A stretch of DNA of 64,000 nt. Source: a virus (Duplodnaviria; Caudoviricetes). The notes below the pieces were generated by a model. It was not told the DNA's origin. It did not search any database and saw only the letters and a list, made by a program, of their open reading frames with translations. Positions 21,012-35,951 of the stretch are shown piece after piece (the stretch's first letter is position 1; each line of letters starts with the position of its first letter). The stretch spans positions 1 through 64,000 of IMG/VR virus record IMGVR_UViG_3300021431_000086. One strand, given 5' to 3'. The position numbers and the translations under genes are program-made.

Positions 21012-21503
21012 TTATTCGTTTAATACCACATACTTTCCTTCTATTCCACAATTTCGCAACCGTTGGTCACATTCGTGGCCCCATGCTACGAGGCATGATC
21101 CGAAAAACGGTGATCCGCTGGTGCCGTCTGGACGCAGGAACTTCACCCTGTGACGCATGAACAACATGGAGGCTGCCGTCGGGAAGATGATATCCTGAAA
21201 CAAGAGATTGTCTTGCCGGTTCACCAACAATGCCATGCCGTTTCCGTGCCTTGACAACTTCTCCACAAAGGCCCGAAGCGGTGCCCTGCTGTAAGGCGGG
21301 TTCATCCATACGACTGCCGTGGAAGGCCATTCATGTGCCAGCCCGTCTTGCTCCTTGTTATAGCTCAGTGGGGCAATAGGGTAGGGCGGCTCCATCGGCG
21401 CACACGGGTCCAGGTCGAAAGGCCCCAATTCGTCGATAATCCATTTCGGAGTGTACCACTCATCGCTCGACACCATTTCATTCTTCTGCTGTCTCGTATC
21501 CAT
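21012..21503 (-). CDS. Phage DNA N6-adenine methyltransferase (Dam-like)
   Basis: DEWYTP, FDLDPCA, DGL and WMNPPY. Confidence 0.9.
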   Translation of the reverse strand: MDTRQQKNEMVSSDEWYTPKWIIDELGPFDLDPCAPMEPPYPIAPLSYNKEQDGLAHEWPSTAVVWMNPPYSRAPLRAFVEKLSRHGNGMALLVNRQDNLLFQDIIFPTAASMLFMRHRVKFLRPDGTSGSPFFGSCLVAWGHECDQRLRNCGIEGKYVVLNE

Positions 21504-21507
21504 TGGG

Positions 21508-22125
21508 TCAGTCCTCCGTAAATTTATCCTTGTTCCTATGATACACTACCAGCCAGCCGATGTTGTCGATGGCGCAGCACAGACCCCAGATGAACATGGC
21601 CACCTTTAGCGAGGGCATGAACAGCAGGGCGCAGACGTAGCCGGCGATGCAGTAGATGCCGCACACCACGTCGTTGTTGTTGTCATAGACCTCGCGTTCG
21701 TGCTCGTTCCACAGCTTCGGTCGGAACGTCATCAGGCACTTGCCAATGAACTCCGACACCAGCGTGCCGTAGAGTAGGCAGGCGATGGCCAGCACCCACA
21801 CGTTGTACTCCACGAAGCAGAGCCACATGCCGACGCAAAAGCCTGCTACCGACTCGATGATGCAGAGCACCGTGAACCACTGGATAGCCTTGCGGCGCAC
21901 CCAGCCTTTCCATATCATGCCGATAAACAGTCCGACCACGGAATAGACAAGCGACTGGAACGCGAGCCATTCTGCAGGCAGTTCCGTCACCCATGCCTTC
22001 GAGATAGCAGGTCCGACGTAGGCATCCAGCAGTCCGACGATAAACAGAGTAGATAGCGTCCACCGCTGGTTCTCGTCGGGGTGGATATTCAGCAGGTCAA
22101 GTAATCGCTTGAATAGTTTCTGCAT
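21508..22125 (-). CDS. Polytopic membrane protein (about 6 TM)
   Basis: Multiple hydrophobic segments. Confidence 0.7.
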   Translation of the reverse strand: MQKLFKRLLDLLNIHPDENQRWTLSTLFIVGLLDAYVGPAISKAWVTELPAEWLAFQSLVYSVVGLFIGMIWKGWVRRKAIQWFTVLCIIESVAGFCVGMWLCFVEYNVWVLAIACLLYGTLVSEFIGKCLMTFRPKLWNEHEREVYDNNNDVVCGIYCIAGYVCALLFMPSLKVAMFIWGLCCAIDNIGWLVVYHRNKDKFTED

Positions 22126-22129
22126 CGTG

Positions 22130-22534
22130 TCAGTCCTCCTTAATCTTTGGTTGCAGATACTCCAGGTTGCGGTTAATCATGCGGATGAGTGCCGTTTCGT
22201 GCTGCTTGAACTTGCGGGTGGCTTCGGCCTCGCTGTCAAGAGCTGTCACATCACACATGCTCCGCTTACAGCACGACAGCGTGTAGTGCAGGTCGCTCAT
22301 TTCGTGCTGGTCAACCTCATACTCGTAGTCGTAGGCCATATAGCCGCCGTCTTTGATGTCGGGGTACATCTCTCGCGGAATGGCTACCTTGAAGTCCTCG
22401 GGCGAAGCGGAGTAGTTGCGCCACTCGCCCCGTTCGTTCAACGTCGGTTTCTGCCCGATAAAGATGCGCAATCGCCCAGGCAGACAGCCCTGCGTGTTCT
22501 TGTCGCGGCAGATGAATAGTCTCGGTGCTCTCAT
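22130..22534 (-). CDS. Hypothetical protein
   Basis: ORF with the junction motif. Confidence 0.7.
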   Translation of the reverse strand: MRAPRLFICRDKNTQGCLPGRLRIFIGQKPTLNERGEWRNYSASPEDFKVAIPREMYPDIKDGGYMAYDYEYEVDQHEMSDLHYTLSCCKRSMCDVTALDSEAEATRKFKQHETALIRMINRNLEYLQPKIKED

Positions 22535-22537
22535 ACA

Positions 22538-23323
22538 TCAGTCCTCCTGCTTGTTTTTGTTACGTTCCTTGTCGAACGACTGCTTTCTGCGCTCCAAATA
22601 CTCATCAATCCAAGGCTGCATCACGTCGAGGTCACGCAGATAGACCTCCACCTCTCTCATGTGCGGCCTCTCGTCACCGAAGCTGTGCATGTCTATCTTG
22701 CCATAGGACATGCTGGCATCGGGACCAAAATTGTCGCGTATCATCTTCCGCAGCAACTTGAAGTTTTCGTCAGTGGCAAACATCGCTTCGCCGTCGCGGT
22801 CGTCGGTCAGTTCAAATCCCATCTTCCGTAAATCTTCCGCCCTACAACCTGAAATGTGCGTCGATAGGTTCATGTTGCCCTGCAGACACCCGAAATTGTC
22901 AAAGTGGATGTCACTGATGTAGCCGAAGCCGTGATAGTCGCCCCATTCGCGGAAAGCGCGGGCGATTGTCTTCATCTTCTCCCGTAAGTCCTCCAGCGAC
23001 ACTTTTTGACCGAGCTGCTGGCGCAGTTCCTCATTATCCATGTTGGCATTGCGTAGTTTGCGCACCAGGTCGTCGTGGTCTTTTGTTGCCTGGTCTTGGA
23101 AGCCCAGCGGTCGCAGCCCGTCGCGACTATAGGTCGCTATCAGGCTTGTCAACGTCTCACGCATTTCCTCCGTCAGTGTGTCCTTCGACACCCTGTCGAG
23201 AAGAAAACCAGCGGACTGGATTAGATCTTTCAGTGCTTTGGTTACTACCTTCTTGTCATCATCGTTCAGTTCGACAAGGTTCTTGTTCGGTTCTTTGCTC
23301 TCAAAAATCGGTCTTTCTTTCAT
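22538..23323 (-). CDS. Hypothetical protein (coiled-coil N-terminal half)
   Basis: ORF with the junction motif. Confidence 0.75.
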   Translation of the reverse strand: MKERPIFESKEPNKNLVELNDDDKKVVTKALKDLIQSAGFLLDRVSKDTLTEEMRETLTSLIATYSRDGLRPLGFQDQATKDHDDLVRKLRNANMDNEELRQQLGQKVSLEDLREKMKTIARAFREWGDYHGFGYISDIHFDNFGCLQGNMNLSTHISGCRAEDLRKMGFELTDDRDGEAMFATDENFKLLRKMIRDNFGPDASMSYGKIDMHSFGDERPHMREVEVYLRDLDVMQPWIDEYLERRKQSFDKERNKNKQED

Positions 23324-23622
23324 CACCAATCCTCCTTGTTTTTCTCGTTAAAAGCATCATTTAACTTACCACTCGCCGATGCCTCTGACATTTGGGCTGA
23401 GACATGAGTTGCGTTTCTTGCCGCAATAATATCCGTCATACGCTCCAGCATCATTTGCACGCCGTCCCTTATTCCTCTCTCGTAAAAGTTCAGCACAATA
23501 TCAGTAATTTTCCTGTCATCGACAAAGCCAGGAATCATCTTTTCTAATTCCTCCCTCTTGCTTTTGGCAAAGTTTTCAACGGCTTCGTCCTTCTTTGCTG
23601 AAGAAATAAAAAAATTGTTCAT
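23323..23622 (-). CDS. Hypothetical protein
   Basis: Start MNNFF follows GGAGGACTGA. Confidence 0.65.
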   Translation of the reverse strand: MNNFFISSAKKDEAVENFAKSKREELEKMIPGFVDDRKITDIVLNFYERGIRDGVQMMLERMTDIIAARNATHVSAQMSEASASGKLNDAFNEKNKEDW

Positions 23623-23626
23623 TTGG

Positions 23627-24088
23627 TCAGTCCTCCACAATGATTAAGTTTGCGTTGCCGTCGCTGAATGACTGCTTCTCGTTGTAGAAATGCTGCACGG
23701 CCACATCGTCAATGCTTGGCACAGTGCGGTACGAGGTAAAACCGTAGTTGGCCTTGTCGAGCCGCTTCTTCATTTCGTCAGCCGCTTCATCAAACGAGTG
23801 TGCCACGATGTAGAACTCTGCGAGTCGGTTCTTAATACGGTAGAGGTGCTTGTCGCGTCCGTCTGCAGGCATTTCCATCTTGTTGGCCAATCCAACAAGT
23901 CTTATCTCCTTGTCGTACTTCTGCATCAGCGTGTCGATGGTGTCCGTTGGTTCTACCCTGATTGTCGCACCGTTCCAGCGTAGAAATACGTCATCATCGG
24001 TCTCAACAGCCTTGCTGATTAGCGTCGGAAATACATTCTCCAGCGTCACGTCGCTCAGCTCACCTTCAAATAATAGTCTTTGTCTCAT
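23627..24088 (-). CDS. Hypothetical protein
   Basis: ORF in the array. Confidence 0.7.
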   Translation of the reverse strand: MRQRLLFEGELSDVTLENVFPTLISKAVETDDDVFLRWNGATIRVEPTDTIDTLMQKYDKEIRLVGLANKMEMPADGRDKHLYRIKNRLAEFYIVAHSFDEAADEMKKRLDKANYGFTSYRTVPSIDDVAVQHFYNEKQSFSDGNANLIIVED

Positions 24089-24311
24089 AATCGTATTCCT
24101 TTTAATTTATTTATTCTTGCGCCTTGTTTTTAATTACGATGGTGGTAATTGTTCGCTTCAAGTTCGGATTCTTGATGAAGCAATCCTCGAACTCGTCGCC
24201 GCACATACAAGAAAGACAGTGTTTGCATTTCGTGCAAATCTCTCGTTTCATTTTCATATCGCCAAATTTGTTTTTAATTCGTTAATACCATGCCTTGCGG
24301 CGTGAATTAGT

Positions 24312-24470
24312 CTAAAAATATATTCGATGTTTACATAATGGGCAAGTAATGTATCTAAGTGCGCTATTCCAATCTTCAGGCCTTGCACAATCTACCTCAA
24401 TATCATTGGAATTGTATTCGAGATTTGCGCCACAATGCTTGCAAGAAACTCTTCCTGATAACACTTTCAT
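24312..24470 (-). CDS. Small Zn-ribbon protein (CKHC...CPLC), not in the ORF track
   Basis: Manual translation: MKVLSGRVSCKHCGANLEY...ITCPLCKHRIYF*. Confidence 0.6.
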   Translation of the reverse strand: MKVLSGRVSCKHCGANLEYNSNDIEVDCARPEDWNSALRYITCPLCKHRIYF

Positions 24471-24483
24471 AGGTCAGTTCTCC

Positions 24484-25248
24484 TTATCTGATTGTGTCAA
24501 AGACCTTTCCTGCGATGTACTCCACTCTGCTGCCGGGCTTCACCTCGGGGAACAGCAGCGGGTTCAGCTCCACTTGGTTCGGGCTGCGGAAGTCGTGATT
24601 GTCGCCCCAATGCGGATAGGCAAAGTGCAGGAGCAGCTTGCCGTCACCGTCGCGGCTGACGTACAGTTTCGTCTTGTGGCCGGGGTCGTAGCGGAACTCG
24701 TTGCAGTCATCGGCCAGTTCGTTGCCGTCGGGACAGAAGCGGCGCAGCATCACCATCGTCAGCCCCGCCGACATGCCGCTGTGACCGGCATCGTTGAAAA
24801 TCTTGTAAGCCTTGCGCAGTCGCTCTATGCGGCTCAGCGTCTCGTCGCGCATCACCCTGGCGCAGTCGAGCACCTGGTCAAGCTCCATGCCACGGTAGAG
24901 GTCGCCGAGACGGATGGGCACTATCTTGTCCCAATACTCCAGTTCGCTCTCTATGATCACGCCGCGAGCCACCTTGCGGTAGTGCTCCGTCAGCTCGGGG
25001 ATGCGTGCCTTGTGCGCCTTCCACTTGGCTTCGTAGTCCTCCTTCCACTTCCTCAAGTACTCGTCGTTTTCGGCCTTTGTCTTGCCCGTGATGCGCAGAT
25101 AGGCATCGTCGTCGCTATCGGTCGAAAGCAGGTACTTGTCGTTGAACACGGCCTTCAACACCTCGCCGCTCTCGTCGGCAGCGGCCATTTCCCTTAAATC
25201 CTTCAGGCAGCTGTCAATCGTGCCGCCATACAATGTTACTTCTTTCAT
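24484..25248 (-). CDS. Hypothetical phage protein
   Basis: WDKIVPIRLGDLYRGMEL and GHSGMSA motifs, recalled from other phage proteins. Confidence 0.75.
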   Translation of the reverse strand: MKEVTLYGGTIDSCLKDLREMAAADESGEVLKAVFNDKYLLSTDSDDDAYLRITGKTKAENDEYLRKWKEDYEAKWKAHKARIPELTEHYRKVARGVIIESELEYWDKIVPIRLGDLYRGMELDQVLDCARVMRDETLSRIERLRKAYKIFNDAGHSGMSAGLTMVMLRRFCPDGNELADDCNEFRYDPGHKTKLYVSRDGDGKLLLHFAYPHWGDNHDFRSPNQVELNPLLFPEVKPGSRVEYIAGKVFDTIR

Positions 25249-25254
25249 ATCGCC

Positions 25255-25485
25255 TTATCCTTTGAATTGATAGAATGGAATCTCTTCCTTGTTTTCATAC
25301 ACGTCAGTTTCCTGTATCTTGCCATAGCGGACGCGCAGTCCACCGAGGTCGCGCTTGGCGTTGTCAGCCTTGATGTCGGCCAGTGTCTGCTCGGCCAGTT
25401 CGCGTGTGGCAAAGATCGCCACGCTGGTTTCCATCGTCACCGTGCCGTTCATCACGCTTTGAGTGAATGAATATACTTTTTCCAT
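25255..25485 (-). CDS. Hypothetical protein
   Basis: ORF in the array. Confidence 0.65.
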   Translation of the reverse strand: MEKVYSFTQSVMNGTVTMETSVAIFATRELAEQTLADIKADNAKRDLGGLRVRYGKIQETDVYENKEEIPFYQFKG

Positions 25486-25508
25486 AATCGTATTCCTTTT
25501 AAGTTATC

Positions 25509-25841
25509 TTACTTCTTTCGGCGATTTCTCGCTATCTCAAAGGCTCGCTGTATGCGCTGCAAGCCCTCTATGAGTTTCGGTTTGTCGGCCTCCATGCGCT
25601 GCCTTATCTCACGGGCGGAGCGGTTGCCGTCGGCACGCTCCTGCTCGGTGGTGTGGCTGTTGAGCCACTTGTTCCAGCAGTCCTTTGAACAGAAGAAGTG
25701 GCAGCCCTCGATGCCAAAGAGTATCGGCATCTTGAACACAAAGCCCTTCTGCTGTGCCTCTACGCCAGCCGCGCCGCCATCCTTCTCGCTGTCAAAGAGG
25801 TGCTTGCCGCACTCCTCGCAATGATACTGATGCTTTGCCAT
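25509..25841 (-). CDS. Zn-finger (CxxC...FCSxxC, TRASH/MYM-like) protein
   Basis: HCEECGK...HFFCSKDC. Confidence 0.65.
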   Translation of the reverse strand: MAKHQYHCEECGKHLFDSEKDGGAAGVEAQQKGFVFKMPILFGIEGCHFFCSKDCWNKWLNSHTTEQERADGNRSAREIRQRMEADKPKLIEGLQRIQRAFEIARNRRKK

Positions 25842-25845
25842 ACGC

Positions 25846-26238
25846 TTAATGTCGTTTAAGGAGTTTCGGATTGTCATGGATATTGCCGACCACCTCTGCC
25901 CATTCCTGCGTAGGAGCGTTGCAGGGAAATTCGTCATCGAGGTCGCCGTTCCACAGGAATGCAAACACACCACGCACAAAGCGCACTTCGAGCAAGGTCT
26001 TTTCCTCGCCCGCTCTGATGATGTCGCCGGCGTAGATTTCCTTTCCATTCTTGTCTCGGAAGGTGGAGAACTGACCTACGGTATCTTCCTTTACCGCCCT
26101 TTCTGCATATCCCACCTTGCCCTCGTCCGTAGGGTATGTGGTGAGAATGGCAGGATAATAGCCCAGACGTTGAATAAGGTCGCCGTATATCCATTCGCCA
26201 GTCTCAATATCCTTGCCACGGAATTTGATTGTTATCAT
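25846..26238 (-). CDS. YopX-family protein
   Basis: IKFRGK, WIYGDL, TVGQF, DKNGKEIYAGDI and EVVGNIHDNP. Confidence 0.9.
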   Translation of the reverse strand: MITIKFRGKDIETGEWIYGDLIQRLGYYPAILTTYPTDEGKVGYAERAVKEDTVGQFSTFRDKNGKEIYAGDIIRAGEEKTLLEVRFVRGVFAFLWNGDLDDEFPCNAPTQEWAEVVGNIHDNPKLLKRH

Positions 26239-26417
26239 AGTTTATTCTCCTTTCTTGCTTCTAATTCTTTTAACTTCGGATAATCTACAACCCATGAACA
26301 ACGGCCGTCACATGGGACAAAAGTGCCATGATACCTTGTACAGACATAACCATACCCTCGTGGACGTTCTCTCCAAGGGCACACCTCCATTCTGTCTTCA
26401 ATTTCTTCCTGTGTCAT
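26235..26417 (-). CDS. Small Cys-rich hypothetical protein
   Basis: ORF in the array. Confidence 0.6.
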   Translation of the reverse strand: MTQEEIEDRMEVCPWRERPRGYGYVCTRYHGTFVPCDGRCSWVVDYPKLKELEARKENKL

Positions 26418-26641
26418 ACTTCCATCATTTTATATTCACCAATACTGAATGCGTTTTCCGTCACATCGAGGTCGTCCCAAGTTTCTTCCCAACCATACCC
26501 ACGGGGACTGTAACACGCCACATGGAGGCGGTTGCCCTCACGGTCTATTGCCAGCACCTTGAACCACATCGGTTCCTTTCAGCCCGTCCATGCCTACTGG
26601 AAACGGTCGCCTACTTTCAATGCTACTTTTCTCTGTGCCAT
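26414..26641 (-). pseudogene. 75-codon gene interrupted by two in-frame stops (TAG at codon 16, TGA at codon 21)
   Basis: MAQRKVALKVGDRFQ*AWTG*KEPMWFKVLAIDREG...YKMMEV*; it fills the gap exactly between its neighbours. Confidence 0.65.
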
Positions 26642-26643
26642 AA

Positions 26644-26856
26644 TTATTTCTCCTTGAAATATACACACCCGTTGGCAAGTGTATGTTTGTTTACGTGATG
26701 TTTCACTTGCTTGCAATATGTGCCACCCATGTAGAAGTAGCAGTCCTTGCAAGTGCGTTTGGGAGGCGGCGGTACATCTGGCATGTGCCGATGCTCTGCG
26801 GCATCTGCCATCCCAACCATAGCCGAAGCCATCAGGTAGAGTAGGTTTTTTTTCAT
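26644..26856 (-). CDS. Small Cys-rich hypothetical protein
   Basis: TCKDC...C...C. Confidence 0.6.
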   Translation of the reverse strand: MKKNLLYLMASAMVGMADAAEHRHMPDVPPPPKRTCKDCYFYMGGTYCKQVKHHVNKHTLANGCVYFKEK

Positions 26857-27098
26857 AATCCGTGAAATTCGTGGTTTCCTTCTTTCTCTACAGCCAAGGG
26901 TCGCATGGCCTTGCACATATCATCCACGCTTGCCTTGCCGGAATTTGCAAATTCAGAAATCCGCAGGGCAATCCGGTATTCCGCAAAGTCGCGCAGGGCA
27001 TCCCAGATTTCATCTTCGCTCACACGGAAACCTTCTGCCCATTCTGTCACCTGTTCACACACACGGCTTCGCAGACGTATCTCTTCAATTTTATTCAT
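26853..27098 (-). CDS. Hypothetical protein
   Basis: ORF in the array. Confidence 0.6.
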   Translation of the reverse strand: MNKIEEIRLRSRVCEQVTEWAEGFRVSEDEIWDALRDFAEYRIALRISEFANSGKASVDDMCKAMRPLAVEKEGNHEFHGL

Positions 27099-27435
27099 GA
27101 CTTGTTTCTCCTTCCTTCTCCTTGTTCAGTTCCCTCAGCAATGCGTCGGTGAATGTCACTGCCATTTGTGCGGCTGCCTCTGCGGTGGTCTTGGCTTCCA
27201 CCTTGCCACCGGCGAGCAGCACCTGGTTGACGGTCTCGATGCACTTGGGCAATGCCATCCCTGCAAGCATCGTGCGCATCGTCTGTTTATCGGCGCACTC
27301 ATGTGGCGGTGTCTTGCAACCGCCGTAGAGGTACACGCCATTGAAGTTGCAGAAGGTCGGCTCGTCCACCTTCATAATTTCGTGGTAAGCCTGGGCGATG
27401 CCCATGCCACACTTCACTGATTTTGATTCTTTCAT
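27091..27435 (-). CDS. Hypothetical protein
   Basis: AAQMAVTFTDALLREL C-terminal motif, common in phage proteins. Confidence 0.65.
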   Translation of the reverse strand: MKESKSVKCGMGIAQAYHEIMKVDEPTFCNFNGVYLYGGCKTPPHECADKQTMRTMLAGMALPKCIETVNQVLLAGGKVEAKTTAEAAAQMAVTFTDALLRELNKEKEGETSHE

Positions 27436-27456
27436 AGGTTCTATTCGTTACATTAT

Positions 27457-28248
27457 TCACACTCCCATCACCCTCCTTGCGGCGGCGATGTCGGGGCGCT
27501 CGCTTTCCATGAATTTCTTGTACTGCTTGCAGTGGCCGCACGGACGGAAAGCTCGCATCCGCTGCCAGATGTCGGCGAAGTTGTCGGTGTTCACGTTGCC
27601 CACCGATGGGCATAGACGGCTCTCGGACATGTGGACGTTGCCCTCGCAATCGACCGACGGCTTGCAGAACTTGCGGTGCAGCATCATCGTAATGCCGAAC
27701 ATCTGCGGCTCGGCTATCTGGATGGCCGTCAGCGTGGAGACCAGGCACGACATGAAGTGCGGGTTGCGCTCCACCTCGCGCTGTGCTTCGGGGTTGGTTC
27801 GCGCCCGTCCGAGGTCCTGCATGAAGATAGTGTCGTCGATGTCCACGATAACCTTGCGGTACTGCTCGTATTCGTGGCGGTGGCTCACCACGTAGTCGTA
27901 GTCCCGGTACCACTGTCGGTGCGTATAGACCTGCATACCGAGGTAGTGGTGCAGCCGAGTAATCCAGTCCATGCGCTGCCGTTTCGTCTCGTCCTTCAGC
28001 CACATGCCGTTTGACACGATGGTGAAGTTGCAGCTTGTAGCTATGTCGAGCCATTCGCACATTTCCACGATGTGCTCGTTCTCCGTCGGTTCGCCGCCCG
28101 ACAAGACGAAGTGTCCGTTGCCGATGTATGTGCCGAACCTCACGGCCTGCTTGAACGTGTCGAGCGTCATCATCAGACCTTCGGGCTGTGCGTCCTCCAT
28201 GCAGTGCGGACACATCATTGTGCATTTGCTTGTGAGTTTTATGAGCAT
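27457..28248 (-). CDS. Radical SAM / SPASM-domain protein
   Basis: LTSKCTMMCPHC, LSGGEPT, SNG, and a C-terminal C...GNV...C...VGNV...IW...CGHC. Confidence 0.9.
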   Translation of the reverse strand: MLIKLTSKCTMMCPHCMEDAQPEGLMMTLDTFKQAVRFGTYIGNGHFVLSGGEPTENEHIVEMCEWLDIATSCNFTIVSNGMWLKDETKRQRMDWITRLHHYLGMQVYTHRQWYRDYDYVVSHRHEYEQYRKVIVDIDDTIFMQDLGRARTNPEAQREVERNPHFMSCLVSTLTAIQIAEPQMFGITMMLHRKFCKPSVDCEGNVHMSESRLCPSVGNVNTDNFADIWQRMRAFRPCGHCKQYKKFMESERPDIAAARRVMGV

Positions 28249-28275
28249 AGTTCTTTTTCGTTTTAATTCGTTGTT

Positions 28276-28986
28276 TTATTTCACCAGTTCAAACTCATAG
28301 ACGAACACCCACGGGTTCCGCTCCCATGTGCCCTTTCCGCTTATCTTGTTGATGAGTACGGCGAAGGCCACTTGTGCCGTCTCTGCCATATATTCGCCTG
28401 GCTCACTGCCTTCCCAGGGGTTTTCGATACCATCTCTGAATTTCTCCAGTGTCCAAACGCGGTGATCTGTGTATTTCTGTGGCGAGAAGTCGGTCAACGC
28501 CTGTTTGTGCCATTGCCGGAAAACGGCAGGAACAATCCCCTCCCTTGCACAGTCCTCGTCGCTGATGTTCTGCAACCGTTCCACGCGGATGCCGGTGATG
28601 CGGATGCGATGGGGCATGAGGTCGGCGCGGACAAACATCTTGTTCGTCCAGCCGGGAGCGTAACGGAACTGCTTGACGTAGTAGTTGCCGTAATCGTTTT
28701 CTGGGTCTTGCTCCACAATAGATCCGTACGACTGCGCCACTGCCACCTCTTCGCCAATCGCATAGTGAGAGATAAGTTGAGCGATCCAATTTCCCTTGTT
28801 ATCAAAGCCCTCCCACACTTGTCTCCCCTTTGTGTCTGTCACCCTGCGCTTGCAGAACTTCTCTATTTGTTCTTCCGTACTGCCTGGATAGAAGTCTATA
28901 CGCTCCACCCTCCGCGTCATCGTCTTCCTCTTTTCCAGCACCGCATTCGTCAGTCCGTAGCGGTCTTTGAACATTATCTTCTTCAT
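28276..28986 (-). CDS. ASCH/PUA-like phage protein
   Basis: KTMTRR, IRITGIRVERLQNISDEDCAREG and WERNPWVFVYEF. Confidence 0.75.
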   Translation of the reverse strand: MKKIMFKDRYGLTNAVLEKRKTMTRRVERIDFYPGSTEEQIEKFCKRRVTDTKGRQVWEGFDNKGNWIAQLISHYAIGEEVAVAQSYGSIVEQDPENDYGNYYVKQFRYAPGWTNKMFVRADLMPHRIRITGIRVERLQNISDEDCAREGIVPAVFRQWHKQALTDFSPQKYTDHRVWTLEKFRDGIENPWEGSEPGEYMAETAQVAFAVLINKISGKGTWERNPWVFVYEFELVK

Positions 28987-29000
28987 AATGCTTGTAGGTT

Positions 29001-29444
29001 TTATCTGTTCCACAACCTGCTCCACCATCCGCGCTGTTTCAGACGGTCCACTGCTTGCGCCAGTTCTATTTTCATGAACTGACATTGTTCGAGTGCCTTA
29101 TTGAGACTCTTGTTCTCACTTTCCAATGCCTCGCACTTCTCCTTGCACTCCTTTTCGAGAGCACGGAGTTTCTCGTCCAGTTCATCGGTGATGTCCTCCA
29201 TGTTCACCATTTTGTCCTCGATGATTTCCTGCATACCGCAGGCACGGGGATTGAAGGTCAGTTCTGTCGTCCTGATGATCTGCCGACGCACCCGCACCTT
29301 GTTCTCGTCGCAAACATGGTCGAGCATCTCCGTCAGCCGTTTGTTTTCCTCCTCCAGTTCCCGGATGCGGTCTCGCATCTTGTCGTACTCATTCAGCGGA
29401 AGCCTTGCCTCGCCGAGGTTGGGGATGTTAATGATTTCTGCCAT
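29001..29444 (-). CDS. Coiled-coil hypothetical protein
   Basis: Heptad pattern, ending RGWWSRLWNR. Confidence 0.7.
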   Translation of the reverse strand: MAEIINIPNLGEARLPLNEYDKMRDRIRELEEENKRLTEMLDHVCDENKVRVRRQIIRTTELTFNPRACGMQEIIEDKMVNMEDITDELDEKLRALEKECKEKCEALESENKSLNKALEQCQFMKIELAQAVDRLKQRGWWSRLWNR

Positions 29445-29447
29445 AGT

Positions 29448-30332
29448 TTATTCGTTCAATTCGTGAGTAATTCGTGTTTGCAATTCAATCCGCTTCCCAT
29501 CCATATCCACGGTGTGCGAGAGGAAGGCTTCGTAGGCACCAGGCTGGAAGTATTGTTGCAGCAGTCGGCGGGTGCTCTCCTTCAGGTAGATGGTCTTGCC
29601 GAAGCATTCCACCAGCCGCACAATGCGCTCGATGGCAGCACCGCTCTCAGCGATGTCGTAGTAGTCCTTCTTCGCACCGCTGCGCAGTCCGAGCTTGTAG
29701 TGGTCGCACCACGGGAGCGTCTGGCGTACCAACCTCCAGGCTGCCTCCCATGTGATGACAGGCTCGATGCTGGCGAAGGTGGAGAAACCCATAAGGTTCA
29801 TCCGTCGCATCGCCATGATTCGGTTGTCGTTGGTGCTCGCACGCGGTTCCATCTCGTCGTGACCTGTGAGCGTGAAACCGAAGTGGATGCTTGGCCGTTT
29901 GTCCCGATAGATATTATTAAGAGCTGTCATTATGGGCACGTCGTGGATAAAAGTGGCATCCTTCGTTAGCACCCATACGGGAATAATTCGGGGTATGGCA
30001 TCATAAATTGCCGAGACAGTCAGGCGACGTGTTTCTTCTATCATCGGATCTGTGGTAAATGATAAAAAGATTCCATGCTTGCGGCAAGCCTCCAGATGCT
30101 TGTCCATTTCGTTCAGCAGAATTTCGGCGGCATGTTGTTCGTTCTTGAAGCACGCCTTTAGCCGCACCTTATTCCCGCCCAGCTGCTTCGATGGCGCACC
30201 TCGCTTCAAGTAACAATAGGTGCATTCATGGGGACAACCCGTGTAGAAGTTGCAGCCTATGCGTCCGTACTCCCGTGCCGCCCCCTTCGTGGTGTAGAGG
30301 GCCTTGCCTTTGATGATGATGTCTGGTGTCAT
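29448..30332 (-). CDS. Radical SAM protein (SplB-related phage clade)
   Basis: AREYG, NFYTGCPHECTYCY, FLSFTTDP, VLTK and ASIEP. Confidence 0.85.
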   Translation of the reverse strand: MTPDIIIKGKALYTTKGAAREYGRIGCNFYTGCPHECTYCYLKRGAPSKQLGGNKVRLKACFKNEQHAAEILLNEMDKHLEACRKHGIFLSFTTDPMIEETRRLTVSAIYDAIPRIIPVWVLTKDATFIHDVPIMTALNNIYRDKRPSIHFGFTLTGHDEMEPRASTNDNRIMAMRRMNLMGFSTFASIEPVITWEAAWRLVRQTLPWCDHYKLGLRSGAKKDYYDIAESGAAIERIVRLVECFGKTIYLKESTRRLLQQYFQPGAYEAFLSHTVDMDGKRIELQTRITHELNE

Positions 30333-30355
30333 AGGTCTTATTCGTGAGTTTTGTT

Positions 30356-30829
30356 TTATAATTGATGCAATTCGGAAAAGCTCTTCCAGCCTGCTTCTGT
30401 AAACTCTCGCGTATAGACTTCGCCACGGGGTTTCAGTGGTTTCCACGCAGGGTCGCAGAACAGGCGGTAGTGGAACACGCCACACTGTCGGCCAACATCC
30501 GAATATGGTCCCTCGCACCATAGCCACCGTCGGTCGTCGCCAAAGAGTTGCTTGATGACAAACTCCAGACGTGAGCGTTTCATGCCACCGGGGAAGGATA
30601 TGGAGAGGTGATAGCACCGTTCGTAGTCTGGGTTCTTCCACCATCCTGACGTGTGGTAGCCAACGTCGCGAGTGAAGATGACGATGCACTCAAATCGTTC
30701 GAGCCACCAACGGCACTGCTCCAGGTAAGGGTCGTCGGGGTTGAGCCCGTCGAACGTGCCATGCTGTGCCGTCTTCCAGATGCGCGGAAACGTCTCGCCG
30801 TTTGTGGCATTCATGGGAATTGTCTTCAT
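30356..30829 (-). CDS. Hypothetical phage protein
   Basis: GYHTSGWWKNPDYERCYHLSISF motif. Confidence 0.75.
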   Translation of the reverse strand: MKTIPMNATNGETFPRIWKTAQHGTFDGLNPDDPYLEQCRWWLERFECIVIFTRDVGYHTSGWWKNPDYERCYHLSISFPGGMKRSRLEFVIKQLFGDDRRWLWCEGPYSDVGRQCGVFHYRLFCDPAWKPLKPRGEVYTREFTEAGWKSFSELHQL

Positions 30830-30834
30830 AAGGC

Positions 30835-31641
30835 TTAGTCTTTTCGTTCCACAAAGTGTCGGTCGAGCAGGATAAAGAGGTCGGGGTTCGGTGTGCCGTC
30901 GGGCAGGAGGGCCTCACTCTTCGGGATAAGCACGGCACCGAAGTCGCCCATGACTATCTTTCCGCTTGCCACGTCGTAGTACGGGTACTTCTTGGTGTAG
31001 GGGTACTGTCGGTCGGGCAGGTATATTTCCTGATTGAGGTAGCAGAACTTGCCTTGCTCCCTGCCGCGTGTGACGGTGCCGAACACCTCATTAGCCTTTG
31101 CAGTTGCCTCCCTGCGATTTGTAGCCATGAACCATGCGACAAGCCAGTCGCCGTAACGCCGTATGTACCCAATCAAGTGCTCATCGCCCCATAGCGGAGA
31201 CAGTTCCAGTTCCATCGTTGCAGGACATAGAGAAGCCTTCCACACCTTTTCGCGCTCCTCGAAATGCGGATTGAGGTCGAAGGGCTCTATCAGCAATTCC
31301 ACATCGCCTTCCGCATCCTTGTACCGCTCGGCAGCGGCTTCGGCGGTGAAGATAGCCTTCGGTTCCTTGTCATACTCGTCGCCCTGCATCACGACATACA
31401 CCTGCGGCGGTGCATATTCGTCGCGGTCATCGTTGGTGATGGTGAGGTAGAGTTGCCACAGTTCTTCTTCGCTGACATCATTCCAGTGGTCACTCTCCTT
31501 ATCCGTCCATTCCCAATGGTCGTTCATGCCGCCGACATACATGCCCAGGCCATGTTGCTGCAGCATACCGACGTGTTCCATGCCCGGCTCGCATCCGCGA
31601 ATCAGGCGCACCAAGTCCGTGCGTGTCAAGTCTTGTATCAT
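30835..31641 (-). CDS. Hypothetical protein (probably multi-module)
   Basis: ORF with the junction motif. Confidence 0.7.
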   Translation of the reverse strand: MIQDLTRTDLVRLIRGCEPGMEHVGMLQQHGLGMYVGGMNDHWEWTDKESDHWNDVSEEELWQLYLTITNDDRDEYAPPQVYVVMQGDEYDKEPKAIFTAEAAAERYKDAEGDVELLIEPFDLNPHFEEREKVWKASLCPATMELELSPLWGDEHLIGYIRRYGDWLVAWFMATNRREATAKANEVFGTVTRGREQGKFCYLNQEIYLPDRQYPYTKKYPYYDVASGKIVMGDFGAVLIPKSEALLPDGTPNPDLFILLDRHFVERKD

Positions 31642-31645
31642 AGGG

Positions 31646-32086
31646 TTATTCCTCCTTTCCGTTCTGTATCAGTGCGAGGTCTCGGGCCAGCAAGGTGATG
31701 GCATCAATGGTATCGAATTGATGCGACGGATGACTACGGAACAGTTTGATGGCTTTCTCCAGTCCCTCTGCTGCCACGAGGCGATTTTTAATGCGAAAGA
31801 CGTAGCCGAGGAAGTAGCTCTCCTTGGCACACTCCGGCTGTACTTCTTCTGGTGGCATAGTCGGTCTTTCTTCCAGTTCCAATGAGTCTTCATCACAGAT
31901 TAAGCAGATGTCGTCAGCGCCTGTGTTGACTACATAGCAACAACAATAGCCATTCCAGTAGCAGAACACGACGGTCAGATGTTCCCTATATTCCTTTCTG
32001 CCATTCTCGATTAGTGCCGTAAGTGTTCCGTCACTTTCTTTCAGGCGCACCAGATCGCCTGCCATAAACTTAAATACTCTTGCCAT
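31646..32086 (-). CDS. Hypothetical protein
   Basis: FKFMAGDLVRL SH3-like start. Confidence 0.65.
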   Translation of the reverse strand: MARVFKFMAGDLVRLKESDGTLTALIENGRKEYREHLTVVFCYWNGYCCCYVVNTGADDICLICDEDSLELEERPTMPPEEVQPECAKESYFLGYVFRIKNRLVAAEGLEKAIKLFRSHPSHQFDTIDAITLLARDLALIQNGKEE

Positions 32087-32093
32087 AATTATT

Positions 32094-32543
32094 TTATTTT
32101 TCGATTAATTGTTCCGGATTTTCGTGGATGTTTCCAATAACACGAACCAGCCCTGTGCTTGACCACTCGTTCAGGCAAGTCATGTGTGTATAGTCATTAA
32201 AGTAGGGGTGAACGCCTTTTAGTAGATAACTGTAATCTTGACAAGTGGCTACATTGAAAGATTCCTCATAGAACACCACGAGTCTTATACCCAACTCAGG
32301 TGAGCCATCGATACCAATAATATCTCCCTCGTACACCTCATCTCCCCATCCCGTTGTCAACCCAGTGTACTGCCCCAGCGTTTCGGGATCAATCTCATAG
32401 TCTTCCCACGACCTTCCCGTGGCGAGCTCGTCGGGACAAACGAAATGGGCGCCACGGTTCTGCAGGTAGAAGCCGTAGATCCACTGGTTGTTTTTGCGGT
32501 TGAATCCGCGAAATTTGATTGTTCTCTTGATGATGTCTGGCAT
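32094..32543 (-). CDS. YopX-family protein (second copy)
   Basis: IKFRG, WIYG, TLGQYTGL, VYEGDI and VIGNIHENP. Confidence 0.9.
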   Translation of the reverse strand: MPDIIKRTIKFRGFNRKNNQWIYGFYLQNRGAHFVCPDELATGRSWEDYEIDPETLGQYTGLTTGWGDEVYEGDIIGIDGSPELGIRLVVFYEESFNVATCQDYSYLLKGVHPYFNDYTHMTCLNEWSSTGLVRVIGNIHENPEQLIEK

Positions 32544-32547
32544 AATG

Positions 32548-32805
32548 TTATTTCTCCTTTTGTTTTAGTAATTCCATTTCTAATTCGTTGGCACTTTCCG
32601 CCACGCATAGATAACTTTTGCCACCTGTCATTTTCAGAACTCTATAAGGATAATCCTCATGTCCTTCACAGAATCCCCAATCGGTTATTGGACCAAGTGA
32701 AGTTATCTGTTCAGTATTGATGAGAATTTCCGGCTTCTTGCTTTTCCTTATATCGTCGAAGCAGCATTCTTCCCGCCCGCTATAAATTTGCACTTTTGTA
32801 AACAT
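32548..32805 (-). CDS. Hypothetical protein
   Basis: ORF in the array. Confidence 0.65.
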   Translation of the reverse strand: MFTKVQIYSGREECCFDDIRKSKKPEILINTEQITSLGPITDWGFCEGHEDYPYRVLKMTGGKSYLCVAESANELEMELLKQKEK

Positions 32806-32816
32806 AGGGTTGTATT

Positions 32817-33257
32817 TTATGGTTTAACATACTTTATCGGCATCACGTTCCCGCCTGTGTACTCATAGAAGAAATGCTGTAATTCGCTGATGGCATCGTG
32901 TGGGAAGAACGCAGTTTCTCCATAGCCGCGAGTAACGACTCTGTAACTCCTTTCGTCTTCTTCTCCATTCCATGACAGGGCGAATGGGCTTCCCTCTTCA
33001 TAGGTAAGCGTATCGGTGCTGAACTCCCACGCATTTTCGTAGTCCCAATCATCCCATTCTTCCTTCTTCTCAAACCCGAAAGCCCGCAGCGTCTCAGGCG
33101 TAATCTTGATATACTCCAGTTGGTCGAGACGTACCCACGTCAGTCTGTCGTGACGCTCGTGATAGCCCACCTTCTTCTGATGCACAGCTGCCACCTGTAT
33201 CACCTTCCCGTCAGCCAGCAGGTAGTCGCCAATCATTATGTCTTGTGGTTTCAGCAT
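32817..33257 (-). CDS. Hypothetical phage protein (IMIGD...ITPETL..FGF...ELQH family)
   Basis: Paralogous to 33595-34050. Confidence 0.7.
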   Translation of the reverse strand: MLKPQDIMIGDYLLADGKVIQVAAVHQKKVGYHERHDRLTWVRLDQLEYIKITPETLRAFGFEKKEEWDDWDYENAWEFSTDTLTYEEGSPFALSWNGEEDERSYRVVTRGYGETAFFPHDAISELQHFFYEYTGGNVMPIKYVKP

Positions 33258-33271
33258 AGTCAGTTCTCCCG

Positions 33272-33580
33272 TTATAATTCGTAGATGATAAATTGATGAT
33301 ATTCCTCCATCGCCTTTCGTAGATGCGAAGCGTCGGTAGTCAGGAGCTGTGCTGCCGTGTACATCGCATCTGCCAACCTCTTCAGTTTTTGCAGTTTTGG
33401 TTCTGTTTCCTTCATCTGGAACGCAGCACCCACTTCCATGTATTCCTTCACAGCCTCCTTGGGGATGGGGTGGTCGCGGTCGTCATTGTGATGGGTGTAA
33501 TAGCCAAAGCCGCAAATACGTGTAGCCAAATCGTCAAGCGACTTTGCTTTCTGTAATGAGTACTTATTTGCATTGTTCAT
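33272..33580 (-). CDS. Hypothetical protein
   Basis: ORF in the array. Confidence 0.65.
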   Translation of the reverse strand: MNNANKYSLQKAKSLDDLATRICGFGYYTHHNDDRDHPIPKEAVKEYMEVGAAFQMKETEPKLQKLKRLADAMYTAAQLLTTDASHLRKAMEEYHQFIIYEL

Positions 33581-33594
33581 GGGGCGGTTCTCCT

Positions 33595-34050
33595 TTAATT
33601 TAACAGTTCTAACTCTTTATCAACTTTTAGCACTCTTAGTATATGCTGCAACTCGTGAACATACTCAATATGCGTTTCTATACTGGTAAACTGAAGTCTA
33701 TTGCGAGGGTCGAAATTGAACGCCCTCAATTTTTTCCAATATGTATTGTATTGGATTTCCACCTCACACTTCCTGGCATCAGTGAATTTCATCGTGGCAG
33801 TATATTCGTCATCCGTATAGGTGTCGTCGTATTTCGGCACTTCCTCAACCGTGAAGCAGCCCAATCTTGCAAGAATCTCCGGCGTGAGGGGGATAGGCTC
33901 TGCATTCGTAATATTACACCAATGCGAACCCTTCTCCGAATCGCCATACACGATTCCGTCCTTGAAGCCAGTCACGCGCACAACAATCTTGCTTCCGTCG
34001 AAGCAGTTGAAATACGCAAGGAATCCAGTCATCAATTCGTTTGCTTTCAT
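33595..34050 (-). CDS. Hypothetical phage protein (MKANEL...PIPLTPEIL...YVHELQH family)
   Basis: Motif family common in Bacteroidetes phages. Confidence 0.75.
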   Translation of the reverse strand: MKANELMTGFLAYFNCFDGSKIVVRVTGFKDGIVYGDSEKGSHWCNITNAEPIPLTPEILARLGCFTVEEVPKYDDTYTDDEYTATMKFTDARKCEVEIQYNTYWKKLRAFNFDPRNRLQFTSIETHIEYVHELQHILRVLKVDKELELLN

Positions 34051-34053
34051 TGC

Positions 34054-34341
34054 TCAGTCCTCCTCCTCGTTCAATTCCCACATTCCGCCGGGCAGCTGAT
34101 GCCACTCCGCCTTGCTCTCAGGGAACAGTTCCCAGCAGATGTCGAAGGCAGCTGGTGTGCGGTGCTCCTCGGTGCCGTCGAATGCGCCGTCGCGGAACAC
34201 TCCCTTGATGGTCCGCGCCCCTTTGTCCTCGTCGGCGGCGGCATAGGCAAAGCCGACGTCGGGGAACAGGCGCGACAGGGCTTCCACCATAGTTGAGAAC
34301 CGGCACAGCAGTCCGTTAGGCTGTCTTGCAATATAACTCAT
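34054..34341 (-). CDS. Apparent chimeric hypothetical protein
   Basis: IARQPNGLLCRFST N-terminus joined to a YubB-like ALSRLFPDV...ADED segment. Confidence 0.6.
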   Translation of the reverse strand: MSYIARQPNGLLCRFSTMVEALSRLFPDVGFAYAAADEDKGARTIKGVFRDGAFDGTEEHRTPAAFDICWELFPESKAEWHQLPGGMWELNEEED

Positions 34342-34344
34342 AGG

Positions 34345-34500
34345 TCATTCCTCCTTTCGCAGTTCATTTCTTAATTCTTCAATAATCTTCTCTACAGCAT
34401 TATACTGGTCGAACATGTGGACTGGAGGTCTCTTTAGATTATCCGCTGCTTCTTGAAGGCAGCAGATAGCCTCCTGAATCATAAATGTGCGTAATGCCAT
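34345..34500 (-). CDS. Small hypothetical protein, not in the ORF track
   Basis: MALRTFMIQEAICC...LRKEE*. Confidence 0.55.
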   Translation of the reverse strand: MALRTFMIQEAICCLQEAADNLKRPPVHMFDQYNAVEKIIEELRNELRKEE

Positions 34501-34503
34501 AGT

Positions 34504-34701
34504 TCACAATCCTTTTGTTATTGTCACACTTAACGCCTCACCATTTCCGAGGCGGTCCAGTTCATTCACCAGCATGGCGATGAACGTACCGAGAGCCTGT
34601 CCCTTGTTATCAGCCAATCTGTTAGCCGTCGTGCGGTCGTGGCGATGCAGTTCCACGCAGTTGTCGAAGTTGTCGAAATAGAATGTCTCAGTTCTTGCCA
34701 T
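34504..34701 (-). CDS. Hypothetical protein
   Basis: Start MARTE follows AGGAGGAATAA. Confidence 0.6.
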   Translation of the reverse strand: MARTETFYFDNFDNCVELHRHDRTTANRLADNKGQALGTFIAMLVNELDRLGNGEALSVTITKGL

Positions 34702-34703
34702 AG

Positions 34704-34829
34704 TTATTCCTCCTTGCTCTTTTTCGATTTCCCTATCCATATCAATGGAACATTGAATATTACGGCGAGGTAAAACAAGCCACCAATCCAGTGCCAAAAA
34801 TTTCCGAAAAAAAATTCACAATACTCCAT
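34704..34829 (-). CDS. 41-aa membrane peptide, not in the ORF track
   Basis: MEYCEFFFGNFWHWIGGLFYLAVIFNVPLIWIGKSKKSKEE*. Confidence 0.6.
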   Translation of the reverse strand: MEYCEFFFGNFWHWIGGLFYLAVIFNVPLIWIGKSKKSKEE

Positions 34830-34832
34830 ACA

Positions 34833-35039
34833 CTATTCCTCCAACTTTTTGATTTTATCAATAACTCTTGCCACCTCCAGCCAACTATGGTTGTACGCCA
34901 GTTGCTTATATCGGACGGCTTCGCGCTCAATCTCAAACTTATGTTCGTTCATAAATGCTATCTGCCTAATGCAGTCATTTTCATATTCCTGCAACGTCTT
35001 GACAAGGTTGTACAGGATGGTTTCTTCATTCTTGGTCAT
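34833..35039 (-). CDS. Hypothetical protein
   Basis: Start MTKNEE follows AGGAGG. Confidence 0.6.
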   Translation of the reverse strand: MTKNEETILYNLVKTLQEYENDCIRQIAFMNEHKFEIEREAVRYKQLAYNHSWLEVARVIDKIKKLEE

Positions 35040-35373
35040 GCGTTTCCTCCTTCTGTTTTCCGACATATCTCACAATCGGGTTAATCCAATCGCCCTCATA
35101 CAACCAATCGCGGTTCCATGAATCGTTATCGAACCCGATAACCTCATACAAGTATCTTCGCCCTTTGTCGTTGTATATAACAGTGCCACCAATGCCGGGG
35201 CAGTTGATATAACGACCATCCGCATCAAAGATTTCAATGAAGGATTTTTCGGCAAGGGTGTCTTTTGGCAGCATGGCCCGGTAATTGTACCACATGCGCT
35301 TCTGATACGGAACGCCCTCGCATTTTGCCTCGCGCTTCCTTTTCAGCGACTTAAAGAAATTGATGATGTTCAT
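35026..35373 (-). CDS. Hypothetical protein
   Basis: Start MNIINF follows AGGAGGAATAA. Confidence 0.65.
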   Translation of the reverse strand: MNIINFFKSLKRKREAKCEGVPYQKRMWYNYRAMLPKDTLAEKSFIEIFDADGRYINCPGIGGTVIYNDKGRRYLYEVIGFDNDSWNRDWLYEGDWINPIVRYVGKQKEETHDQE

Positions 35374-35375
35374 AG

Positions 35376-35624
35376 TTATTCCTCCTTTTCTTTTATTCGT
35401 TTTGCCATCCTCCTCGCGTGTTCCCATTCGTCGTTTTCCTTCATGGCTTCCACAAGTTGATAGGTGTTGATACTTTGTGCGGGTGAGTACCGCTTGGACT
35501 TCTCCTGCCACACGTTGCACTTCGACTTGTCGTTCCAGTCCACCACTTCCAGCGTGTAGAGCCAGTCGCCCGTGCGTACCGTCTTCGTCTTGCCCAACGG
35601 CAACATTCTTTCATTCAAAGGCAT
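35376..35624 (-). CDS. Hypothetical protein
   Basis: ORF with the junction motif. Confidence 0.65.
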   Translation of the reverse strand: MPLNERMLPLGKTKTVRTGDWLYTLEVVDWNDKSKCNVWQEKSKRYSPAQSINTYQLVEAMKENDEWEHARRMAKRIKEKEE

Positions 35625-35627
35625 TGG

Positions 35628-35951
35628 TCAGTCCTCCATGTGCTTCTTGAAGTCCTCAATTAGGTATTCCGCTCCAAGTGCATTTGTCGCATAATACCTG
35701 ATGTTGTTTAACAGCCAACTGCAAGCCTTCTCAATCCATTGCTGCTTTTCGGTCGGCTCATTGAAATCCACCAACTCCATTTTGTCTTGTGCGCAAGAGC
35801 CGATGGATGATACAACAGGCTCATCGGGGAAGTTGTTCTTCAGACATTTGACATCGTAGATGAGATTTTGTTTATTCATCTTGAGTCCTACAATCTGGTA
35901 GATGTTCCCATTGTACTTGACAATATCATCAATTTTGAATTTCTGTTTCAT
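35628..35951 (-). CDS. Hypothetical protein
   Basis: KFKIDDIV start; IEKACSWL...IEDFKKHMED end. Confidence 0.7.
   Translation of the reverse strand: MKQKFKIDDIVKYNGNIYQIVGLKMNKQNLIYDVKCLKNNFPDEPVVSSIGSCAQDKMELVDFNEPTEKQQWIEKACSWLLNNIRYYATNALGAEYLIEDFKKHMED

Follow-up and report, generated by a model that had tools for sequence, protein, structure and literature searches.

Extended Shine-Dalgarno Sequences at Coupled Gene Starts in the Accessory Gene Array of a Bacteroidota Phage Family

An array of small accessory genes in the virus record IMGVR_UViG_3300021431_000086 (IMG/VR; Duplodnaviria, Caudoviricetes) displays a short repeated sequence at its gene junctions: GGAG(G/A)A, a stop codon, 2–4 nucleotides (nt) and the ATG of the next gene. 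The region analysed consists of positions 1–64,000 of this record and is termed the window. The repeated junctions have the form of extended Shine-Dalgarno (SD) sequences and probably serve termination-reinitiation, i.e. translational coupling, along the array. In the phage family to which the record belongs, in its host, and in three cultured Bacteroides and Porphyromonas phages, strong and well-spaced SDs are found almost exclusively at coupled starts. Bacteroidia are the textbook bacteria that retain the anti-SD while ignoring SD sequences.

The window is the reverse complement of the final 64 kb of a 125.8-kb phage contig (termed C50), which was binned in a 3.1-Mb metagenome-assembled genome (MAG; termed G000) of 99 contigs. 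C50 is phage-like throughout and carries ~180 densely packed genes, including those for a 2575 amino acid (aa) tape-measure protein, an S49 head-maturation protease, ParA and a Rep3-like initiator. The closest cultured relatives of the S49 protease are from Flavobacterium and Porphyromonas phages. The remainder of the MAG shows 12 SusD_RagB matches; among 14 control genomes SusD_RagB was seen only in Bacteroides thetaiotaomicron, and an assignment of the host bin to the Bacteroidota is supported. A preliminary description of the window, made from the sequence alone, had presumed a Bacteroidetes host; these matches and the SD-depleted, A-rich leaders of the host bin bear this out. The accompanying claim that SDs are avoided in the host also holds, as GGAG/GAGG-type motifs precede 6.9% of host starts versus 15% of internal ATGs.

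A strict form of the junction motif (GGAGRAMTRAN{1,6}ATG) occurs 14 times in the window, compared with 0.09 ± 0.29 expected from 100 dinucleotide shuffles, and every match lies on the minus strand at positions 21501–35637. In a second count, a start was considered SD-led when a GGAG core is found 5–12 nt from the ATG with a duplex of -7 kcal/mol or lower to ACCUCCUUU, the position of the stop codon being ignored. By this measure, with hand-curated genes, 20 of 37 starts at positions 21012–35624 are SD-led versus 5 of 143 on the remainder of the contig (Fisher p = 3e-12). The GGAGG/GGAGA core together with the preceding AA has a pairing energy of -8 to -12 kcal/mol with the canonical tail ACCUCCUUU.

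All 16 starts named in the preliminary description are minus-strand ATGs that follow GGAG(G/A)A, a stop codon and 2–4 nt. Four further SD-led starts are found at 35039 (an ATGA overlap), 33580 (stop before the SD), 27098 and 23323. The SD always sits in the frame xxG GAG GAN stop, and unrelated upstream proteins therefore end in ..EE, ..ED or ..EK, as had been pointed out. The leaders of the structural genes (38730–53952) and of the replication genes (ParA, Rep) are A-rich and contain no SD, also in agreement with the earlier account. The array and its junctions are listed below; all are on the minus strand.

19456..38571, minus strand: gene array; 44 genes in one orientation with tight packing, most of them small and of unassigned function (curated chain of open reading frames, Pfam/PHROG)
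35622..35637, minus strand: junction GGAGGACTGACCAATG; upstream protein tail ..HMED
35371..35385, minus strand: junction GGAGGAATAACTATG; upstream tail ..KEKEE
35037..35050, minus strand: junction GGAGGAAACGCATGA; stop/start overlap ATGA
34827..34842, minus strand: junction GGAGGAATAGTGTATG; upstream tail ..KKLEE; breakpoint of homology to the related genome G001 within the stop codon
34699..34713, minus strand: junction GGAGGAATAACTATG; upstream tail ..SKEE
34339..34354, minus strand: junction GGAGGAATGACCTATG; upstream tail ..RKEE
34048..34063, minus strand: junction GGAGGACTGAGCAATG; upstream tail ..EEED
33578..33593, minus strand: junction TAA-AGGAGAACCGCCCC-ATG; stop ahead of the SD, SD-to-ATG distance the same as elsewhere
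33255..33269, minus strand: junction GGAGAACTGACTATG; beyond the true stop of gene 33580–33272 (in frame TAA CGG GAG AAC TGA)
32541..32557, minus strand: junction GGAGAAATAACATTATG; upstream tail ..KQKEK; left arm of a 20-bp indel homology
31646..32543, minus strand: two-gene cassette (149 aa and 146 aa); not in G001
31639..31655, minus strand: junction GGAGGAATAACCCTATG; upstream tail ..NGKEE; right arm of the indel homology
27096..27111, minus strand: junction GGAGAAACAAGTCATG; start overlaps the end of the upstream gene by 8 nt
26639..26653, minus strand: junction GGAGAAATAATTATG; leads only a 15-codon open reading frame, 26594–26641
26236..26250, minus strand: junction GGAGAATAAACTATG
24468..24483, minus strand: junction GGAGAACTGACCTATG
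23620..23636, minus strand: junction GGAGGACTGACCAAATG
23321..23335, minus strand: junction GGAGGATTGGTGATG; start abuts or overlaps the upstream stop
22532..22547, minus strand: junction GGAGGACTGATGTATG
22123..22139, minus strand: junction GGAGGACTGACACGATG
21501..21517, minus strand: junction GGAGGACTGACCCAATG; ahead of the Dam methylase gene 21012–21503

The segment at 33255–33274 has the appearance of a junction cassette, complete with a stop codon, appended to a gene that was already terminated. The start previously listed at 26641 has a perfect junction (AAGGAGAAATAATTATG) and opens only the 15-codon open reading frame 26594–26641; the next open reading frame (26414–26569) begins 25 nt past its stop and in a different frame. 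The gene is probably frameshifted, with its continuation at 26569, or the break may be an assembly error. An identical 20-nt leader (TTAAAAGGAATACGATT-ATG) is found before two different genes (25485–25505 and 24088–24108, minus strand) and represents a second, weaker junction type containing AAGGAA.

The phage family was assembled by using the 605-aa protein at the head of the array as query, which yielded 23 related IMG/VR contigs, five of them complete at 126–141 kb. The strict motif is present in 12–17 copies in four of the complete genomes and in 3 copies in one, with 0–1 in the reversed control. Five family genomes were analysed (C50, G001, G002, G003 and G005). A model-free count of GGAGG-N3-10-ATG per kb did not separate phage and host, and is uninformative because GGAGG is common at 53% G+C; it was replaced by SD-blind gene calls, which rely on codon usage and the longest compatible ATG and ignore upstream sequence. 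On C50 these calls match the curated array except for a few small genes that are missed. A start was termed coupled if it lies 20 nt or less from the stop of an upstream gene on the same strand.

In the five genomes, strong SDs are present at 96 of 373 coupled starts versus 13 of 539 uncoupled starts (odds ratio 14, p = 2e-27); the rate at coupled starts is 25.7%, compared with 3.1% before internal ATGs. Only 12 of the 109 family SD junctions are distant from any stop. The gap between stop and ATG is 3 nt in 38 of the 109, 4 nt in 13, 2 nt in 6 and -4 nt in 8. GGAG starts 12–13 nt ahead of the ATG whether the stop overlaps the ATG (n = 11), is in the spacer (n = 61) or precedes the SD (n = 24). 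Since this spacing holds in all three arrangements, the constrained distance is that from SD to start, as in a genuine SD, and not that from SD to stop.

The aligned junctions have the consensus AA-GGAGGA-CTGA-(C/G)C-N-ATG, and the 10-mer GGAGGACTGA accounts for 39 of the 109. The flanks are unrelated and conservation is limited to ~14 nt. Of 54 aligned junctions, 40 and 39 have A at the two positions directly before GGAGG; these bases lengthen the complementarity to the CCUCCUU tail of the rRNA. ACUGA after GGAGG was considered as a further extension of the rRNA pairing and was rejected on the basis of what we take to be the Bacteroides 16S 3′ end, for which a perfect complement at the ACUGA position would be UGUUC.

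The stop is TGA in 47 of 61 upstream open reading frames with an embedded SD (77%) versus 30% of other genes (p = 7e-13). The last codon is tied to the stop: GAC occurs with TGA, and GAA mostly with TAA. Junction variants are regional, the AATAA type being found in the 46%-G+C block at 31.6–35.4 kb and in its counterpart in G001, and the ACTGA type elsewhere. Local base composition, a preference for the GAC codon, or local copying could each contribute to this stereotypy.

The SD is not a fixed property of the gene that it precedes. Where the upstream neighbor differs between genomes, 41 ortholog pairs are discordant in SD status and 13 are concordant. For example, the Dam orthologs of three relatives (G001, G002 and G005) lack an SD in the leader, as does the G001 ortholog of the gene downstream of the 33255..33269 junction. 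C-terminal tails are sometimes reshaped to encode the SD, e.g. ..PELLEQ versus ..PELLKED. SD status follows the packing context rather than the gene, since orthologs switch between SD-led and A-rich-led forms. SD-led genes are seldom present in all four relatives (3% versus 14% of SD-less coupled genes, p = 0.002).

The same restriction is found in the host at a lower frequency. GGAGG at a spacing of 5–10 nt precedes 5.3% of coupled host starts versus 1.0% of internal ATGs (p = 3e-11) and 0.2% of operon-first genes, and shows a positional peak at 6–10 nt. By the criterion used for the phage family, strong SDs are at 7.3% of coupled versus 2.1% of uncoupled host starts. Host genes with a strong SD are nearly all coupled to an upstream gene, with gaps of -14 to +12 nt (e.g. 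C17:22891, C38:14864, C79:60167 and C96:29239). One example is the rpsF-rpsR junction. Host rpsF (encoding bS6) ends with AAG GAG GAG GCA TAA, followed by ACT and the ATG of rpsR (encoding bS18), so that the junction reads AAGGAGGAGGCA-TAA-ACT-ATG. The host rpsU leader is A-rich and without an SD, which is typical of the class Bacteroidia.

Cultured phages were compared in the same way. SDs are present at 10 of 36 coupled and 0 of 33 uncoupled starts in phage B124-14, at 6 of 31 and 0 of 33 in its relative B40-8, and at 5 of 29 and 1 of 27 in Porphyromonas phage022a. The rule was not evident in crAss001 (2 of 37 and 0 of 17, positions 50–100 kb only) or in Flavobacterium phage FCL-2 (1 of 45 and 0 of 31). 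In this small sample of phages, the restriction of SDs to coupled starts is neither unique to the C50 family nor universal in the phylum. In 40 genomes of the same order the exact motif was counted ~248 times versus ~163 in the reversed control (summed by hand). This is ~6 matches per genome, and cellular genomes thus rarely carry the stereotyped form of the junction.

In the proposed mechanism the junctions would act as extended SDs with the consensus AAGGAGGA and with complementarity to the CCUCCUU end of 16S rRNA. The SD is encoded by GAG GAC or GAG GAA, the final pair of sense codons in the upstream gene, and is followed by the stop codon, 2–4 nt and the ATG. These SDs would be active in translational coupling only. 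A ribosome that has just terminated, or its 30S subunit, would be held by the SD and set on the ATG 7–9 nt past GGAGG, and translation would be handed from gene to gene through the ~19-kb polycistronic accessory array. This supposes that anti-SD pairing occurs in the host and that the post-termination state frees an anti-SD that is normally sequestered. As a by-product, 15–20 co-oriented copies of a 10–20-nt sequence would offer micro-homology for the occasional gain or loss of whole genes.

Features expected of termination-reinitiation are present, i.e. genes in the same orientation that overlap or nearly abut, and an SD within the 3′ end of the upstream open reading frame. The SD itself has a fixed spacing of about 5–10 nt from the start codon and is enriched above background. 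Termination-reinitiation was one of three possibilities offered in the preliminary description and is the best fit among them, given the near-confinement of SDs to coupled starts, their constant spacing, and the same rule in the host, including rpsF-rpsR. With somewhat better than even confidence, the extended SDs are considered to have this function. SD-assisted coupling is most likely a known mechanism operating here in a lineage thought not to use it.

The pattern resembles that described by Huber et al. (2019; PMC6728339; review PMC12548453) in that the SD is in the 3′ end of the upstream open reading frame, with the stop and start either overlapping or separated by a few nt. Haloarchaea employ the SD in reinitiation though it is useless to them for de novo initiation (PMC6728339), which matches the pattern proposed here. 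The C50 family differs in two respects. Huber et al. singled out the Bacteroidetes as using SDs for neither process, whereas in the C50 family 26% of coupled starts, and 54% of those in the array, have an SD. The junctions in the C50 family are also mainly of the stereotyped stop-in-spacer type, with a modal gap of 3 nt, rather than ATGA or TGATG overlaps. No paper on SD enrichment at coupled starts of Bacteroidales phages was found in the literature.

Several points weigh against termination-reinitiation. Ribosomes of Flavobacterium johnsoniae show no SD recognition in vitro, as bS21, bS18 and bS6 sequester the anti-SD, also in the 70S ribosome (PMC7797042), and its elongating ribosomes likewise rely little on the SD of the prfB frameshift site (PMC10798248). 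With Prevotella bryantii, a rumen species, addition or removal of an SD in the 5′ untranslated region left the reporter yield the same (PMC3155529), though this concerns de novo initiation and not coupling. Huber et al. surveyed 720 genomes and concluded that Bacteroidetes rely on SDs neither to initiate nor to reinitiate (~10% of overlapping pairs; PMC6728339). A survey of phages describes Cellulophaga phages without SDs (bioRxiv 10.1101/2021.04.21.440840). In the present data ~45% of the array junctions and 74% of the coupled junctions family-wide are without an SD, so that an SD is not required for coupling. In addition, the MAG has no 16S rRNA gene and its anti-SD is thus not directly readable; a canonical anti-SD would follow from the host rpsR SD (AAGGAGGAGG). 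The assignment of C50 to the MAG is itself indirect, being based on binning and circumstantial evidence.

As to this assignment, a ~40-nt G-rich hairpin (CCCCTCCCTCCACGGGAGGGG...) has two copies in the phage (window positions 12707–12753 and 16665–16702, in opposite orientations), and the rest of the MAG has it with 89–97% identity on at least five contigs (C1, C14, C31, C47 and C79). This repeat may be a further, weak link between phage and host. A short-match search revealed no CRISPR spacers joining host to phage and turned up only the hairpin repeat. A search of genome contigs with the 605-aa anchor protein gave two short contigs of ruminant MAGs (labeled Prevotella sp. and Eggerthellaceae), which is insufficient to name a host genus. 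Nor did a host protein find a taxonomically usable match in a protein atlas.

It is possible, if unlikely, that translation of the SD-led cistrons falls chiefly to a ribosome minority with a free anti-SD (30S subunits without bS21 or bS18, as in the autoregulation of rpsU and rpsR). Selective translation of this kind was another of the three options in the preliminary description. If so, expression of the array would be low, or would be tied to a ribosome state that infection may induce. The only SD function demonstrated in Bacteroidia is on bS21-deficient ribosomes reading the rpsU SD (PMC9976891, PMC13000453). The autoregulatory SDs of rpsU and rpsR (PMC7797042, PMC9976891, PMC13000453) are, like those of the phage, extended SDs in an SD-less lineage; the phage SDs (AAGGAGG, about -11 to -12 kcal/mol) resemble them, and the host rpsF-rpsR junction has the identical layout of SD, stop, 3 nt and ATG. 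A strong SD precedes rpsR in 66% of the class Bacteroidia (PMC7797042, Table 1). In the same table SDs are found before several operon-internal ribosomal genes, and before 1.7% of all Bacteroidia genes versus 0.2% in Flavobacteriia. However, the SDs of rpsU and rpsR regulate proteins that hide the anti-SD, whereas those of the phage number dozens per genome and precede unrelated accessory genes (open reading frames without known relatives, the Dam methylase and YopX-like PHROG 98 proteins). None precedes a gene for an anti-SD-occluding protein: no bS21 or bS18 homolog is found on C50, and no candidate factor acting on bS21 was identified. Ribosomes with a free anti-SD should also initiate de novo at ordinary leaders, but uncoupled SDs are nearly absent (13 of 539), a restriction that this model does not predict by itself. 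The free movement of orthologs between SD-led and A-rich leaders also argues against a dedicated class of regulated genes.

The micro-homology linker proposed in the preliminary description assigns a different primary role to the repeated junction, as a short homology for the insertion, deletion or exchange of cassettes one at a time, its likeness to an SD being secondary. Compared with G001, the closest relative, in which the anchor protein is 96% identical, the array is a fine mosaic with homology blocks ending at almost every gene boundary. Several ends are inside the motif, e.g. within the stop codon after GGAGGAATA at 34834 and directly before GGAGG at 35386. One clean event is an indel of two genes (882 bp) with 20 bp of junction homology at its flanks. 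Genes 32543–32094 and 32086–31646 are absent in G001, where the junction GGAGAAATAACCCTATG is a hybrid of those on either side of the pair in the window, and the two alignments overlap by 20 bp. The rarity of SD-led genes in the family core, the regional clustering of the AATAA and ACTGA types, and the excess of TGA stops are also consistent with a recombination role. On the other hand, breakpoints are equally precise (2–20 nt ahead of the ATG) at the SD-less boundaries 30339, 29446 and 28268, and the motif is in the overlap of only one of five clean indels among the five genomes. The mapping of breakpoints on relatives, which had been suggested as a check, thus places some ends at the motif and others just as exactly where there is none. 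Conservation of ~14 nt with unrelated flanks points in the same direction, and recombination predicts neither the constant SD-to-ATG distance nor the confinement to coupled starts, nor the presence of such SDs in host operons and unrelated phages. A linker function accordingly finds an instance in the two-gene indel, and as the main role of the junction it is rather improbable. The SD is read here as a translational signal that would mark the flexible, tightly packed part of the genome and would occasionally provide recombination homology.

In this respect the array is comparable to the PeSL cassettes of T4-type phages (Arbiol et al. 2010, PMC2839356), where a short regulatory repeat is situated between small non-essential genes of a hyperplastic region, and where recombination between copies removes or adds whole genes, as in the one event in the C50 array. 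PeSL differs in being an intergenic promoter with a terminator stem-loop, whereas the C50 repeat is a translational signal within coding sequence; no stem-loop or promoter was found in the 14-nt conserved junction core. Recombination at the C50 junctions also seems occasional and not dominant.

A last alternative, that the SDs arrived with genes captured from phages of SD-using bacteria and are functionless relics in the present host, is considered very improbable. The lower G+C content of the upper block (46% at 32–36 kb, below the rest of the array) and the predominance of genes without known relatives are in its favor. But the SD is encoded in the tail of the upstream gene and varies with context and not with the downstream gene, and on these grounds the relic was ruled out. 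In addition, the fixed spacing is kept in relatives whose anchor protein is only 50–65% identical, uncoupled starts are without SDs, and the lower block of higher G+C content also has them.

The occurrence of strong SDs almost exclusively at coupled starts leads to a testable claim, namely that in gut and rumen Bacteroidales the anti-SD is usable by ribosomes that have just terminated. A more general form is put forward only tentatively: in Bacteroidales, perhaps not in Flavobacteriales or crAss-like phages, just-terminated ribosomes may expose the anti-SD, and the SD may be a dedicated reinitiation signal that hosts use sparingly (at rpsF-rpsR and ~5–7% of coupled starts) and that several siphophage lineages have amplified for their long accessory arrays. 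If so, this would revise the view of Bacteroidia as SD-blind and would give their anti-SD a function beyond its published roles, which are bS21/bS18 autoregulation and rRNA processing only. There is a practical bearing on the prediction of gene starts in Bacteroidales phages and on the design of polycistronic constructs in Bacteroides and Prevotella. The junction would also illustrate how a translational repeat located within genes can, on occasion, provide homology for recombination as well in a hypervariable region of a phage.

The transcription context of the array was analyzed for promoter and terminator sites. A phage promoter-like motif, read from the sequence, precedes the first array gene:

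38627..38637, minus strand: promoter-like motif CTTGCCCTTGA; upstream of the first gene of the array (605 aa, 36754–38571)

The 39-bp block around CTTGCCCTTGA is 92% conserved in G001. Terminator-like and sigma-70 promoter sites within the array are at the shuffle background. The Bacteroidetes-type -33/-7 promoter pattern gave 3 matches versus 0.7 expected, none of them informative for the array. A single long transcript is plausible in view of the conserved CTTGCCCTTGA motif ahead of the array and the lack of above-background terminators inside it, and positions 19456..38571 probably constitute one long polycistronic unit.

Most array genes are without known relatives in Pfam and PHROG searches. 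A megablast search of the array against INPHARED phages gave no match, and Rfam and tRNA scans of the window gave none. Among sequencing runs the stretch was found in the probable source sample only, and no RNA run was listed. Two paralogous proteins (PHROG 98/PHROG 8684; 25846–26238 and 32094–32543), of unassigned function, each follow a GGAGAA-type junction. Three array proteins are radical-SAM-like (19456–20451, 27457–28248 and 29448–30332), one at the Pfam cut-off with a weak SPASM match and two below the cut-off. The Dam methylase (21012–21503) and a weak match to Tad3, a Thoeris inhibitor (within 24484–25248), are in the same array, and this neighborhood may be an anti-defense or DNA-modification cluster.

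Outside of the array, the Rep3-like initiator and the ParA ATPase (window positions 5469–6920 and 9077–9943) on a tailed-phage contig of 126 kb suggest a phage-plasmid lifestyle. Window positions 1–37 are outside C50, and direct repeats rich in G (GGAGGGTGTCGGGGTGTC..) are present at this end of the window (positions 1–60); they may represent a terminal repeat or the end of an assembly.

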